From a virus (taxonomy: Duplodnaviria > Heunggongvirae > Uroviricota > Caudoviricetes): 4,949 nt of DNA. Numbering within the stretch: the stretch's first letter is position 1; each line of letters opens with the position of its first letter. The stretch lies in the IMG/VR virus record IMGVR_UViG_2529292882_000009; one strand, written 5' to 3'. The notes beneath the pieces were generated by a model that did not search any database, had not been told where the DNA came from, and saw only the letters and a list, made by a program, of their open reading frames with translations. Below, piece after piece: positions 135 through 4,949 of the stretch. The position numbers were made by a program, and so were the translations under genes.

Positions 135-161
135 TTACCGATCGATTTGATTGATTCGATC
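127..161. promoter_or_regulatory. Cluster of three GATC (Dam methylation) sites within 35 bp, upstream of the mom-type promoter and overlapping the invertase 3' end
   Basis: GATC at 127..130, 140..143 and 158..161, each inside an ATCGAT or CGATCG palindrome. The last two lie inside the final codons of the invertase (stop at 135..137). In Mu, three clustered GATC sites upstream of the mom promoter are the methylation-sensitive OxyR (MomR) repression site (established knowledge, recalled). Confidence 0.5.
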
Positions 162-728
162 GTCGTTTTCTATATGCGTTCGTTTCGCAGGGTGTTTTTT
201 ATACAGAGTTGACAGGGCCACATCGTAGATCAATGCGACCTGCTTGCGGGGGATTCCTTGTGCTAATAAACGCCCGGCCTGCTCCCACTCTGCTTTGGTT
301 AGTTTAGGTGGTCGCCCACCAATACGGCCTTTATTTCTGGCGGCAGCAAGTCCAGCCATCGTTCGCTCGATAATTAGTTCTCGTTCCATTTCAGCCAGAG
401 CACCCATAACGTGGAAGAAAAAACGCCCCATTGGAGAAGATGTGTCTATGTTGTCGGTCAGACTGCGAAAATTAATCCCTCGCTCCCGTAGTTCCCCGAC
501 GAGAGAAATCAGATGTTTCATACTTCGCCCGAGGCGATCCAGTTTCCAGACAACCAGCGTGTCACCTTTTTGAAGGCGCTTTAAAGCGCGTTTTAATCCC
601 GGTCGGTCTGTCTTTGTCCCGCTTAATTTATCTTCAAATATTTGTTCACATCCTGCACAAACAAGAGCGTTTCGTTGCAGGTCTGTATTCTGGTCATTTG
701 TTGATACCCTTATATAGCCAATCAGCAC
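135..728 (-). CDS. gin: Serine-recombinase DNA invertase, Gin/Pin/Cin/Hin family (resolvase-like catalytic domain plus C-terminal HTH)
   Basis: 197-aa ORF; N-terminus MLIGYIRVSTNDQNTDLQRNAL contains the catalytic-serine motif (YIRVST) typical of Gin/Pin/Cin/Hin invertases; C-terminal GRPPK...AIYDVALSTLYKK region matches the HTH DNA-binding domain. Start is GTG (rc of 726..728) with GGGAG Shine-Dalgarno (rc of 736..740) 7 nt upstream. Symbol gin is chosen because of the Mu-like neighbours (Com-like gene, GATC cluster); a Pin- or Cin-type orthologue cannot be excluded without alignment. Confidence 0.95.
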   Translation of the reverse strand: MLIGYIRVSTNDQNTDLQRNALVCAGCEQIFEDKLSGTKTDRPGLKRALKRLQKGDTLVVWKLDRLGRSMKHLISLVGELRERGINFRSLTDNIDTSSPMGRFFFHVMGALAEMERELIIERTMAGLAAARNKGRIGGRPPKLTKAEWEQAGRLLAQGIPRKQVALIYDVALSTLYKKHPAKRTHIENDDRINQIDR

Positions 729-781
729 TCTGGATCTCCCGTTTAAAAGCGCAAATCATGCCATGCAGGCCGGAAACAGCC

Positions 782-1753
782 ATTATCCAAAACCTCGGTT
801 TGCAGGAAACGGTAAATCAGGCTTCTGGCGCATTACAGAAAAAACAGAACGGTGCAGATATTCCGGGAAAAGATACCTTCACCAAAAATATTGGTGCCTG
901 CCGCGCATATAGCGCATGGCTGAATATTGGTGGCGATAGTCAGGTCTGGACAACCGCGCAATTTATTTCGTGGCTGGAGAGTCAGGGAGCATTTAACCAT
1001 CCTTACTGGATGTGCAAAGGCTCATGGGCTTATGCAAATAATAAGGTCATTACAGATACAGGTTGCGGAAATATTTGTCTTGCAGGTGCTGTGGTGGAAG
1101 TTATTGGCACTCGCGGCGCAATGACCATACGCGTTACTACGCCGAGCACGTCCAGCGGTGGCGGAATTACTAACGCTCAATTCACTTATATTAATCATGG
1201 TGATGCTTATGCTCCTGGCTGGCGAAGAGACTACAACACGAAAAACCAGCAGCCTGCATTTGCTTTAGGGCAAACAGGAAGCAGGGTTGCAAATGATAAA
1301 GCTGTTGGCTGGAACTGGAATAGCGGCGTTTATGATGCAGATATCAGTGGCGCATCGACATTAATCCTCCACTTCAATATGAATGCGGGGAGTTGCCCTG
1401 CTGTACAGTTCCGCGTGAATTACAGGAACGGCGGTATTTTTTATCGTTCAGCGCGTGATGGTTATGGATTTGAGGCTAACTGGTCAGAGTTTTACACCAC
1501 GACCCGCAAACCCTCTGCGGGAGATGTTGGTGCATACACGCAGGCAGAATGTAACTCAAGGTTTATTACAGGTATTCGCCTTGGCGGTCTGTCATCTGTT
1601 CAGACATGGAATGGTCCCGGCTGGTCTGACAGGTCAGGTTATGTCGTTACGGGTTCAGTTAACGGAAACCGTGATGAATTAATTGATACAACTCAGGCAA
1701 GGCCAATTCAGTATTGCATTAATGGAACGTGGTATAACGCGGGGAGTATTTAA
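782..1753 (+). CDS. Silent alternative tail-fibre C-terminal variable cassette (S'-like); no start of its own, would be fused to the constant fibre N-terminus after inversion
   Basis: The ORF track extends this frame back to 614, but 614..781 overlaps the invertase 5' end and has no fibre-like sequence. Real homology starts in the inverted repeat, where IQNLGLQETVN (782..814) is identical to the same peptide in the expressed fibre. Gly/Asn/Trp/Tyr-rich fibre-tip composition; ends RPIQYCINGTWYNAGSI, similar to the expressed fibre end. Stop TAA 1751..1753. Confidence 0.8.
   Translation: MIQNLGLQETVNQASGALQKKQNGADIPGKDTFTKNIGACRAYSAWLNIGGDSQVWTTAQFISWLESQGAFNHPYWMCKGSWAYANNKVITDTGCGNICLAGAVVEVIGTRGAMTIRVTTPSTSSGGGITNAQFTYINHGDAYAPGWRRDYNTKNQQPAFALGQTGSRVANDKAVGWNWNSGVYDADISGASTLILHFNMNAGSCPAVQFRVNYRNGGIFYRSARDGYGFEANWSEFYTTTRKPSAGDVGAYTQAECNSRFITGIRLGGLSSVQTWNGPGWSDRSGYVVTGSVNGNRDELIDTTQARPIQYCINGTWYNAGSI
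783..816. repeat. Left inverted repeat of the invertible segment (gix-type recombination site)
   Basis: ttatccaaaacctcggtttgcaggaaacggtaaa is 33/34 identical to the reverse complement of 3825..3858. The first 26 bp have gix/hix architecture: two 12-bp half-sites (783..794, 797..808) around a 2-bp core TC (795..796). Confidence 0.9.
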
Positions 1754-1755
1754 TT

Positions 1756-2289
1756 ATGATGCACTTAAAAAATATTACTGCTGGCAACCCTAAGACAAAA
1801 GAGCAATACCAGCTAACGAAACAATTTAACATCAAATGGCTTTATACAGAGGATGGGAAAAACTGGTATGAGGAACAAAAGAACTTTCAGCCTGATACGT
1901 TGAAAATGGTCTATGACCACAACGACGTTATTATTTGTATTGAAAAGGATGTTTCAGCAATTAATCCAGAAGGCGCAAGCGTCGTTGAGGTTCCTGATAT
2001 TACAGCAAATCGCCGGGCTGATATTTCGGGTAAATGGATGTTCAAAGATGGCGTAGTGATAAAGCGAACTTATACCGAGGAGGAACAGAGGCAGCAGGCA
2101 GAGAATGAAAAGCAAAGCCTGTTGCAACTTGTCAGGGATAAAACCCAGCTATGGGACTCACAGCTACGGCTGGGAATCATTTCCGACGAGAATAAACAAA
2201 AATTAACTGAGTGGATGCTCTATGCGCAGAAAGTCGAATCTACAGACACCTCCAGCCTGCCAGTAACATTTCCCGAACAACCTGAATGA
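1756..2289 (+). CDS. Alternative tail-fibre assembly protein / chaperone (U'-like), currently in the silent orientation
   Basis: 177 aa; starts 2 nt after the S' cassette stop; first ~125 aa closely resemble the 2318..2848 product ([22 protein letters not shown] vs [23 protein letters not shown]; shared [18 protein letters not shown]), with a divergent C-terminal third. Family assignment by position and paralogy. Confidence 0.8.
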   Translation: MMHLKNITAGNPKTKEQYQLTKQFNIKWLYTEDGKNWYEEQKNFQPDTLKMVYDHNDVIICIEKDVSAINPEGASVVEVPDITANRRADISGKWMFKDGVVIKRTYTEEEQRQQAENEKQSLLQLVRDKTQLWDSQLRLGIISDENKQKLTEWMLYAQKVESTDTSSLPVTFPEQPE

Positions 2290-2292
2290 GAC

Positions 2293-2312
2293 AAGGCCCG
2301 ATAGCGGGCCTT
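2293..2312. terminator. Hairpin between the convergent chaperone genes; candidate bidirectional terminator
   Basis: aaggcccg (2293..2300), loop atag, cgggcctt (2305..2312): perfect 8-bp GC-rich stem. Followed on the plus strand by aattttta (2313..2320); flanks are less T-rich for the minus strand. Confidence 0.5.
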
Positions 2313-2317
2313 AATTT

Positions 2318-2848
2318 TTATTCAGGCTTTTGTGGCCATTCTGGCTTTGCCGTATCCACACGGCTGACCAGAACACTGTAGCGTTCCCATGACTCCAGTC
2401 GTGCGCGTTCCTCATCCGTCGCCATATTCAGTCTGACAGCGCGTTCCAGTGGCTGAATAACGTTTTCTGCTTCGGAAAGTAACGCGGCCTTTTGTGATTC
2501 GGCCTGTTGTTGTTGCTCGTCTGCCGTATAAATCCGTTTAACCACAGCTCCGTCCTTAAACATCCACTTCCCTGAATCATCGGCACGACGATTGGCTGTT
2601 ATATCTGGAATCTCAACGACGCTAAAGCCTTCGGGATTAAGCGTTGAGGCATCTTTGGTTATGGCAACAATAATATTATTTTCGTCGTATACAATCTTTA
2701 TGGTGTCGTCCTGAAAGTTATTTACTTCTTCATACCAGTTTTTACCGTCTTCGGACCATAACCAGATAACATCAAAATTCTTTGTTAGCTGATATTGTTC
2801 TTTCGTTTTAGGATTTCCAGACTTAATATTTTTTAAATGCTGCATCAT
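2318..2848 (-). CDS. Tail-fibre assembly protein / chaperone (U-like), in the expressed orientation
   Basis: 176 aa; tandem ATG start (rc of 2843..2848) directly abuts the fibre stop codon (TAA, rc of 2849..2851); AGGTG Shine-Dalgarno upstream; paralogous to the 1756..2289 product. Confidence 0.85.
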
Positions 2849-4354
2849 TTACACCTGTGCGACGTTATACCATGTGCCATTGATGTATTTTTGTATTGGC
2901 CTGAAGATGGCTTCATCATCGCCATCTACTTCACCAATGATTCTTAATCCGGTAATTGCGTGTCCGGCTTTTTCATAACGACCACCACGCGCCATCAATT
3001 GAACAACACGTGTGCCAAGTCGGACATCTCTCACATAGCGTGAGTCAAAATTGCCATAATTGCCGGGAATAACTTGCGCACCACAAAGCCAGTTACCGTT
3101 ATTATCCATGTACGCCTGACCATCGGTGCCATTGGCTGTCCTTGAGTTATTAATCATGTAGATGCCAAATTGCTTGTTCCCCAGTCCACCTATCATGAAC
3201 TTTCGGTCGGCGTGATTCTGGCGAAGTAACGCCTGAGCGCTATCAGTGTTAACTATATTTTTCCCAAAGATAGCGTTGTTATCGCGCATCTGAATCCACA
3301 TACCATTACTGCTGTTAATAGCAAAACGGTCTGAAAGTGTCTCCCCTGAAACATTAAGACCACGCCCCATCGAAACAGCGCCAGTAGCGTTATTAATCCA
3401 TAATGGCCTTAATCCGTTATAAGTCCCCATGTTGTCACCGGAGTTTGTCAACATGAAGTATGTATTTGAACCATCATTACGAATAAAGAATCCGTAATTA
3501 CCATAAGCAATACGTAGGCCGTTTGCTGATTTTGATATGACTTCGCCATTTACAATGGCATTGACAAGAACATACAAAGCATCCCATTTAAGATTCATCA
3601 GGTCTTTTGTTGTGGTGCTCTGGCGGCTTCTCCATTTGAAATATTCATTGCCGTTGTCGCCTGTTTCAAACCACATGTATGAATCAGTGTCGCTGTCGGC
3701 ATCATTTTTAAATCCAATCTTTGCCCAGTCAGTATTCCGAATCCAGGCAAGGATTGAGTCGTTTTCAAAAGTAAGTCCGCCGGACAAGGTATCGCCTGTC
3801 TTTTGAACGGCGTTACCAGCCTTGTTTACCGTTTCCTGTAAACCGAGGTTTTGGATAAACAGCGGCTTATTGGGAATATCTGCTCCGTTCCGGTCTTTTG
3901 CCAGACGGGCATTGGCATTATCCATCGCAATTTTCACCGCTTTTGCGGTGGCTGCCAGCGTTTCACTGAGGCTGTCAGTGGCACTGGTTAGCTGAACGAG
4001 TCCTTTTTTGTTCAGGCTGGCATCATAGATATCCAGATTTTCACGTGCTGTACGCTGTGCTGATGCCCCGGCAATTTTAATTTCGCTGAGGTTATTTTTT
4101 ATCAGCAGCGCGTTATTGCTCATAATGGCTTTAATGGACAGTGCAAGCTGGTTTAATTTTGTTTTATCCGGTTGAATACCGGCTTCTTCCAGCGTGTTTA
4201 ATAACTCCGCCTGCACAATATTAAACCAGTCCATGCCGGGCCATGTGATAACATTATTCCCGTCACCTTCTGAAAACCAGCGAACGATAGCACTACGCTG
4301 GGCGGATACGGGCGGCATGACGGTTACGCCGCTGTCGTTATCAATATAAAACAT
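2849..4354 (-). CDS. Tail-fibre protein (S-like): constant N-terminal part (4354..3859) fused across the right inverted repeat to the currently expressed variable C-terminal part (3824..2849)
   Basis: 501 aa; GGAG Shine-Dalgarno upstream; start ATG (rc of 4352..4354) overlaps the upstream gene stop by 1 nt (TAATG). The inverted repeat encodes FIQNLGLQETVN in frame. C-terminal two-thirds are rich in N, G, W, Y as expected for a receptor-binding tip; ends RPIQKYINGTWYNVAQV. Confidence 0.9.
   Translation of the reverse strand: MFYIDNDSGVTVMPPVSAQRSAIVRWFSEGDGNNVITWPGMDWFNIVQAELLNTLEEAGIQPDKTKLNQLALSIKAIMSNNALLIKNNLSEIKIAGASAQRTARENLDIYDASLNKKGLVQLTSATDSLSETLAATAKAVKIAMDNANARLAKDRNGADIPNKPLFIQNLGLQETVNKAGNAVQKTGDTLSGGLTFENDSILAWIRNTDWAKIGFKNDADSDTDSYMWFETGDNGNEYFKWRSRQSTTTKDLMNLKWDALYVLVNAIVNGEVISKSANGLRIAYGNYGFFIRNDGSNTYFMLTNSGDNMGTYNGLRPLWINNATGAVSMGRGLNVSGETLSDRFAINSSNGMWIQMRDNNAIFGKNIVNTDSAQALLRQNHADRKFMIGGLGNKQFGIYMINNSRTANGTDGQAYMDNNGNWLCGAQVIPGNYGNFDSRYVRDVRLGTRVVQLMARGGRYEKAGHAITGLRIIGEVDGDDEAIFRPIQKYINGTWYNVAQV
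3825..3858. repeat. Right inverted repeat of the invertible segment (gix-type recombination site), inside the tail-fibre coding sequence
   Basis: tttaccgtttcctgtaaaccgaggttttggataa; its reverse complement differs from 783..816 by one base (A vs G, partner of position 802). Core dinucleotide at 3845..3846 (GA on plus, TC on minus) matches the left core. Confidence 0.9.
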
Positions 4355-4896
4355 TAGTTATCTCCGTCATGGTAAACAAATTTATAAATCTGATGCGCGG
4401 GTTTATATTTCTCCAGTAAACATTCCAGCGCACCCGATTCATAAACACGTAACGGCGTCAGAACATTATCCAGCACCGTTGCGTTGCGATAATTTTTAAT
4501 ACCGTAAATATTGACCTGCGTAACCCACTGGCCTTCTGTGGAATCCGTCAGCCTGACGGTAAAACCGTACTGCGCAGCCAGCCATTCATAAAAGCGCCTA
4601 CTCAGATTGCCGGTCATACGCATTTTATTCGCGGCAGCCCGCTGGCGTTCGGACAGGGTGCCGTTTTCGCTGGTACAGTCCGGCAACCCCAGAAATGATT
4701 CCCACTCACCCAGATACCAGCGGGATGTGGACGGGAAACGCTCCCGCAGCATTTGCCGCGCATCATCCGCCGCAGTGGCAATCACGTCGCTGATGGCCTG
4801 CGCCAGCGCAGATAATTTGCTGTCGGGGCTTTTATTCCAGGCAAGCCCTGACGGCAGTAATTGCAGAAAGGCCGTCTGATAGGGTGTTACAGCCAT
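4354..4896 (-). CDS. Phage tail/baseplate protein immediately upstream of the tail fibre (Mu gp48 / P2 gpI / YmfQ-like by position)
   Basis: 180-aa ORF (MAVTPYQTAFLQLLPSGLAWNKSPDS...); GGGGA Shine-Dalgarno 7 nt upstream; start ATG (rc of 4894..4896) directly follows the upstream gene stop (TGA, rc of 4897..4899). Function is inferred from gene order in Mu-like tail modules; I cannot confirm the family from the sequence alone. Confidence 0.6.
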   Translation of the reverse strand: MAVTPYQTAFLQLLPSGLAWNKSPDSKLSALAQAISDVIATAADDARQMLRERFPSTSRWYLGEWESFLGLPDCTSENGTLSERQRAAANKMRMTGNLSRRFYEWLAAQYGFTVRLTDSTEGQWVTQVNIYGIKNYRNATVLDNVLTPLRVYESGALECLLEKYKPAHQIYKFVYHDGDN

Positions 4897-4949
4897 TCAA
4901 TTGTCCCCGGTGTTAACAGTTCCGTATTCTCCGAACGCTGGATCTCTGT
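4897..4949 (-). CDS. 3' end (last ~17 codons, ...RDPAFGEYGTVNTGDN, plus stop) of an upstream tail/baseplate gene entering from beyond the window end
   Basis: Open minus-strand frame from the window edge to TGA (rc of 4897..4899), which directly abuts the next ATG, consistent with a translationally coupled late-gene operon. Identity unknown (baseplate J-like by position only). Confidence 0.35.
   Translation of the reverse strand, partial: RDPAFGEYGTVNTGDN

Follow-up and report, generated by a model that had tools for sequence, protein, structure and literature searches.

The closest described relatives of the locus analysed here are the G segments of phages Mu and D108, which have the same gene order: gp48, S (composed of a constant part, Sc, and a variable part, Sv), U, U', Sv' and gin, followed by the com/mom side. 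The recombination sites of this system are called gixL and gixR, and its Fis enhancer is the element 'sis' within gin. The same architecture is found in the C segment of phage P1, which has an invertase (Cin) with an internal enhancer, two sites (cix) and Sv, U, U' and Sv' cassettes, although Cin is a different protein and the segment measures 4.2 kb. The e14 element of Escherichia coli K-12 resembles the present locus in that a Din-family invertase (PinE) adjoins the inverted tail-fibre cassettes of its P segment, but differs from it in segment length (1.8 kb), in the core (TT/AA) and outer half-sites of its pix sites, and in being a defective prophage. Inversion of the e14 P segment has been demonstrated experimentally (PMC12529663), and Pin is able to invert the Mu G segment (cited in PMC12529663). 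The reaction, as described for Mu Gin, depends on host Fis and on negative supercoiling, and the DNA is cleaved with a 2-nt stagger and linked to the enzyme through phosphoserine (PMC3575834; PMC3798978).

Gene content of the locus

The window, i.e. the whole stretch of 4,949 nucleotides under analysis, matches phages D108 and Mu from end to end with about 96% nucleotide identity, the remaining divergence of about 4% being scattered through the fibre genes. Judged by this similarity, it almost certainly represents the gin/G-segment region of a Mu/D108-like prophage. The cassettes of P1 are about 92% identical to positions 825..3840. The following features were recognised:

135..728, minus strand: gin, serine DNA invertase (197 aa, GTG start; Pfam Resolvase, E 7e-51, and HTH_7, E 2e-17; catalytic Ser9 present in the N-terminus MLIGYIRVS)
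619..712, minus strand: putative Fis-dependent recombinational enhancer, nt 17-110 of gin, placed by homology only
783..816, plus strand: gin-proximal 34-bp inverted repeat with the 26-bp gix site 783..808, 25/26 identical to Mu gix
797..1753, plus strand: Sv', alternative C-terminal part of the tail fibre (gp37_C domain; annotated as S' in Mu and D108)
1756..2289, plus strand: U', tail fibre assembly protein paired with Sv' (177 aa; Pfam Caudo_TAP, E 2e-36; annotated in Mu and D108)
2289..2322: bidirectional terminator, a hairpin located where U' and U converge (GGCCCGATAGCGGGCC, with T/A runs on each side)
2318..2848, minus strand: U, tail fibre assembly protein paired with Sv (176 aa; Pfam Caudo_TAP, E 5e-37; annotated in Mu and D108)
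2849..4354, minus strand: S, tail fibre gene (501 aa; Phage_fiber_2 and Gp34_trimer domains; annotated in Mu and D108)
3825..3858, minus strand: Sc-proximal 34-bp inverted repeat with the 26-bp gix site 3833..3858 (core GA, 3845..3846), 26/26 identical to Mu gix
4354..4896, minus strand: Mu gp48-like baseplate wedge protein (Pfam Phage_Mu_Gp48, E 1e-27; Mu_48 annotated at the homologous place)

The S gene consists of the constant part Sc (3847..4354) and the variable part Sv (2849..3844), which are joined by a gix site, and the gp48-like gene is located outside the invertible segment. The orientation present in the window is of the G(+) type, in which Sc+Sv and U are expressed and Sv' is silent. 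The reading frame of Sv' is open from 782 to 1753 and passes through the other gix site. The extension of this frame in the ORF list to a TTG codon at 614 (614..781, plus strand; 379 aa, overlapping gin in antisense) was rejected as spurious, since expression of Sv', which lacks its own start, depends on fusion to Sc. Inversion of the window in silico produces an intact Sc+Sv' ORF of 488 aa in place of the present 501-aa S. The locus therefore holds two alternative fibre C-termini, each accompanied by a Caudo_TAP protein, and a complete fibre gene in both orientations.

At the position homologous to the hairpin between U' and U, Rho-independent terminators are annotated on both strands in D108 (L002, 2589..2622). 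Another inverted repeat, of 351 nt with 70% identity (1752..2102 versus 2499..2849), corresponds to the homologous N-terminal halves of U' and U and is not a recombination site.

The two repeats as gix sites

Positions 783..816 (TTATCCAAAACCTCGGTTTGCAGGAAACGGTAAA) agree with the reverse complement of 3825..3858 (TTATCCAAAACCTCGGTTTACAGGAAACGGTAAA) in 33 of 34 bases; at the remaining one, G at 802 stands against A (3839 being T on the given strand). The first-pass annotation had read the pair as serine-invertase sites whose single mismatch, at the sixth base of a 12-bp half-site, spares the crossover dinucleotide. Direct comparison confirms this description, the half-site being 797..808, since the two cores, TC at 795-796 and GA at 3845-3846 (TC in reverse complement), are identical. 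The assignment of the crossover dinucleotides agrees with the Mu record (L001), in which the G-segment boundaries (1095 and 4154) fall within the core dinucleotides of the two Mu sites. The chance expectation for such repeats in 4949 bases is about 4e-12. Outward, the similarity ends sharply at 783 and 3858; inward, a repeat search extends the pair to 58 nt with 81% identity, and this extension is due to the homologous coding sequences with which Sv and Sv' begin. Translated in frame with the fibre gene, each repeat gives IQNLGLQETVN.

In the recombinase-engineering literature, native gix is given as a 20-bp core, CTGTAAACCGAGGTTTTGGA, in which crossover takes place at GA (PMC5175349; PMC3985619, Table 1). 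This sequence maps to 3836..3855 without mismatches and to 786..805 on the minus strand with one, no matches being expected by chance. The match to the gix core and the location of the Mu boundaries at the cores indicate that the functional 26-bp site is 783..808 itself and is not offset from it, as the earlier reading had allowed for. Within this site the outer half-site occupies 783..794, the core TC 795..796 and the inner half-site, with the variant G at 802, 797..808. In Mu both 34-bp copies are TTATCCAAAACCTCGGTTTACAGGAAACGGTAAA, to which the Sc-side copy of the window is identical at all 34 positions and the gin-side copy at 33, differing at 802. The two sites are 26-bp imperfect palindromes in inverted orientation with identical 2-bp cores, and on this evidence there is little doubt that they represent the two gix recombination sites of a Mu/D108-like prophage. 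The cix sites of P1 have in common with them the half-site pattern xxxxxxxAAACC, followed by a 2-bp core and GGTTT, but differ in the core (TT/AA) and in the inner half-site (TTCTCTTAAACC), and the outer half-sites of cixL and cixR are unlike each other.

Gin invertase and the putative enhancer region

The Gin protein is identical to Mu Gin at 189 of 193 positions and to D108 Gin at 194 of 197, its C-terminus having the length found in D108 (197 aa) as opposed to that of Mu (193 aa). Both phage records have gin annotated at the homologous place, and the enzyme of the window is intact.

Fis sites are known to lie inside the gin coding region (PMC3378877). The annotated enhancer of P1 covers nt 19-90 of cin and is homologous to nt 17-110 of gin in the window. 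The latter stretch is base-for-base identical to that of Mu, and the first 130 nt of the gene differ from Mu solely at nt 16, 111 and 116. Fis-like 15-mers are also present. Judged by the homology with Mu and P1, the putative enhancer is very likely intact.

A simple scan for sigma-70-like promoters around the gin-proximal site (600..950) found none, which leaves the idea that 802 belongs to a promoter hexamer of gin unsupported.

Nature of the G/A mismatch

Base 802, the sixth of its half-site counted from the core, corresponds to position 7 in the conventional numbering, in which the core bases are +/-1. It occupies the third place of a leucine codon, TTG versus TTA, and the difference is silent in both S and S'. 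Compared with Mu, the gin-side copy carries one synonymous A-to-G change, located at position 7 of the inner half-site beside Sv'. Gin is reported to read its half-site non-specifically at positions 10-7, strictly at positions 6-4 (an A/T tract) and specifically at positions 3-2, and to read the core non-specifically if both cores give compatible 2-bp overhangs (PMC3985619), these tolerance data having been obtained with fusions of the catalytic domain (zinc-finger-Gin and Cas9-Gin). Position 7 is located directly outside the strictly read block. A comparison with known gix, pix and cix sites, as proposed in the first-pass annotation, was performed: position 7 is A or T in the half-sites of Mu gix and T or A in those of P1 cix, and it is C in both inner half-sites of e14 pix (TTCTCCCAAACC), which is the same base as in the variant site of the window (TTCCTGCAAACC). 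In all likelihood, the G/A difference is a neutral polymorphism in a Gin/gix system.

There is a slim chance that a G:C pair at position 7 measurably alters the affinity of Gin for its site, leading to an orientation-dependent rate of inversion or to a different Gin occupancy upstream of gin. The site carrying it alternates between the place proximal to gin and the enhancer and the place proximal to Sc, so the two orientations might differ in rate or occupancy. If true, this would mean unequal G(+)/G(-) switching or autoregulation of gin, absent in Mu, whose sites match.

A flipped natural isomer

The genome of E. coli PEC422 matches the window colinearly at exactly 783..3858 only, and according to its annotation it carries this prophage with the segment in the opposite orientation. 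Inversion of the window in silico between the cores gives a sequence identical to PEC422 at 4946 of 4949 bases; the three SNPs (window positions 1483, 4630 and 4651) are all outside the gix sites. The prophage thus occurs in either orientation, and the two forms cease to be colinear at the sites. In PEC422 it is the Sc-side site that has G, and the gin-side site has A. Both 802 and 3839 lie between the cores, inside the inverted DNA, so the G switches site at each inversion and is linked to Sv'. The sequences directly show the identity of the sites, the gene content and, through this natural isomer, the movement of the marker with the segment.

The exchange separating the two forms lay outward of 802, within 783..801, a stretch that includes the core; since these bases are identical in both copies, the exchange is not placed more finely than this and not to the dinucleotide. 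The G thus shows that the exchange occurred outward of 802, but it does not resolve a partition exactly at the crossover dinucleotide, the check proposed in the first-pass annotation. The mismatch was also expected to stay with its flank, and it does remain linked to the Sv' flank; this flank, however, is the invertible segment and not the fixed gin side. The proposed use of the G as a marker of which arm is which fails, as the base moves at each inversion, and what it reports is the orientation, as can be seen from the 3-kb segment anyway.

At least one inversion occurred after the G arose, and the variant site is thus competent, though possibly at a different rate from a site without the G. 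The flip might also have been catalysed in trans by a Pin-type invertase in place of Gin. Inversion probably continues in the source lysogen.

In PEC422 (L003) a TGA codon is found in Sv' at the homologue of window 1481..1483 (TGG, Trp). The fibre gene now fused to Sc is annotated there as a pseudogene with an internal stop; Sv' of the window is intact.

Variant sites in other Mu-like loci

The G variant is uncommon but recurrent. No exact match to the 26-bp site with G was found in the species-representative genome collection, and a relaxed 19-base pattern retrieved 14 loci from the same genomes, nearly all in phyla far from enterobacteria, which are given no weight here. In IMG/VR the site with G has exact matches in 3 contigs and the Mu-type site in 8. 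Of 5,426 complete E. coli genomes, none contains an exact copy of the 64-nt gin-G-Sv' junction present in the window. The flipped form of that junction (Sc-G-Sv', 64 nt) has exact copies in PEC422 and RMDEC465, and MIN10 has an exact copy of a gin-side junction of the D108 type with G.

Among the Mu-like loci compared, the inner G is located on the gin side in the window, MIN10 and the loci L009 and L012, and on the Sc side in PEC422, RMDEC465, L006, L007 and L008, almost always beside Sv'-type sequence. In L008 (IMGVR_UViG_2534681662_000019) G occupies position 7 of both gix sites (826..851 and 3837..3862), and Sv-type sequence follows each of them, so that across the population the G is not strictly tied to Sv'.

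Outer half-sites also vary. The variant TTATCT occurs on the gin side only (D108, RMDEC465, MIN10, L008, L009, L012, L014 and L015), in loci of both orientations. Both outer half-sites are variant in D108 (L002, 1083..1108 and 4130..4155) and in MIN10 (L034, 5015..5040 and 7967..7992), with TTATCT (position 8) on the gin side and AAAACG (position 2, adjoining the core) on the Sc side. Position 2 is where recognition by Gin is said to be specific; the recurrence of AAAACG in two records that are independent of each other points to a genuine polymorphism that is tolerated. Markers of the inner half-site change place on inversion and those of the outer half-site do not, which is the behaviour predicted if strands are exchanged in the middle of the site; this pattern holds at the population level only. 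No near-isogenic pair with both an outer and an inner marker was found among L012/RMDEC465 and MIN10/RMDEC465, which have opposite orientations and shared site types, about 94-97% identity and different cassettes.

In E. coli SE11 (L005, sites at 1083..1108 and 4130..4155), as well as in L009, Sv'-type sequence (tcaggcttctgg...) follows both gix sites, and such alike cassette starts suggest exchange or conversion between cassettes. The contig L012 (IMGVR_UViG_2690316161_000025) contains an exact direct repeat of 4,776 bp (270..5045 and 8390..13165) that begins inside gix, and has three gix sites, one of the Sc type and two of the gin type; the repeat may be an assembly artefact or a real duplication.

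Alternative explanations

The G at 802 might be a sequencing or assembly error, as the first-pass annotation had itself considered, the repeats being truly identical as they are in Mu (34/34), and the absence of an exact match to the gin-G-Sv' junction of the window among complete E. coli genomes would agree with this. The probability of such an error is nevertheless negligible, because the same G is found beside Sv' in the independent assemblies PEC422, RMDEC465 and MIN10 and in several IMG/VR contigs (L006-L009 and L012), and PEC422, at a distance of three SNPs, has it at the very site predicted by inversion. Somewhat more conceivable, but still very unlikely, is that the gin-proximal site has been disabled by the A-to-G change, leaving the segment locked and the repeat a relic in a decayed prophage. 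Known gix and cix half-sites do have A or T at position 7, next to the A/T tract (positions 4-6) that is read strictly (PMC3985619), and the nonsense mutation in S' of PEC422 shows some decay in the lineage; however, the near-identical, G-bearing prophages of the window and PEC422 are in opposite orientations, which implies inversion after the G arose, and the G occurs on both the Sc and the gin side across Mu-like loci. Functional pix sites of e14, whose inversion is documented (PMC12529663), have C at position 7, and Gin, the core and the enhancer region of the window all appear intact, which also argues against a locked segment.

The difference in orientation between the window and PEC422 could in principle result from RecA-dependent homologous recombination between the repeats in place of site-specific exchange, since a crossover anywhere in the identical 783..801 would look alike. 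The uninterrupted identity outward of the mismatch amounts to merely 19 bp, well below the length at which RecA-dependent recombination in E. coli is efficient, and a complete dedicated invertase system, near-identical to the characterised Gin, gix and enhancer of Mu, is present; this route is accordingly extremely improbable. Site-specific exchange at two gix sites, one of them with a neutral base difference, is the preferred reading.

Proposed mechanism

In site-specific exchange of this kind, a Gin dimer would bind each 26-bp gix site, and host Fis, bound to the enhancer in the 5' part of gin, would activate the synaptic Gin tetramer. Gin would then cut all four strands at the central dinucleotides (795-796 and 3845-3846), with phosphoserine links formed via Ser9, after which one pair of half-sites would rotate by 180 degrees before religation. 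The identity of the cores matters because the 2-nt overhangs must pair for religation. As a result, 797..3844 would be inverted and the fusion partner of Sc would be swapped, giving either Sv with U or Sv' with U', and the exchange of the variable fibre end may change the host range. The dependence on Fis and the enhancer, the chemistry and the effect on host range are presumed for this locus by analogy with the described Mu, Hin and Cin systems (PMC3575834; PMC3798978; PMC3378877).

Each inversion transfers the G at 802 to the other site, its linkage to Sv' being maintained. Serine recombinases form no heteroduplex beyond the 2-bp overhang, so the difference at position 7 escapes both correction and transfer to the other copy, in agreement with its stable association with Sv'.

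Implications

The system is already known, being the textbook G-segment switch of Mu, and nothing in it is categorically new. The window can safely be annotated as the G segment of a Mu/D108-like prophage with an intact Gin/gix switch, and the finding matters little beyond this label. Its natural polymorphism, the inner G at 802, and those of its relatives, the outer TTATCT and AAAACG, represent built-in markers of the exchange. In public assemblies of both orientations the inner markers move and the outer ones stay, as would be expected for exchange at the dinucleotide without heteroduplex or gene conversion.
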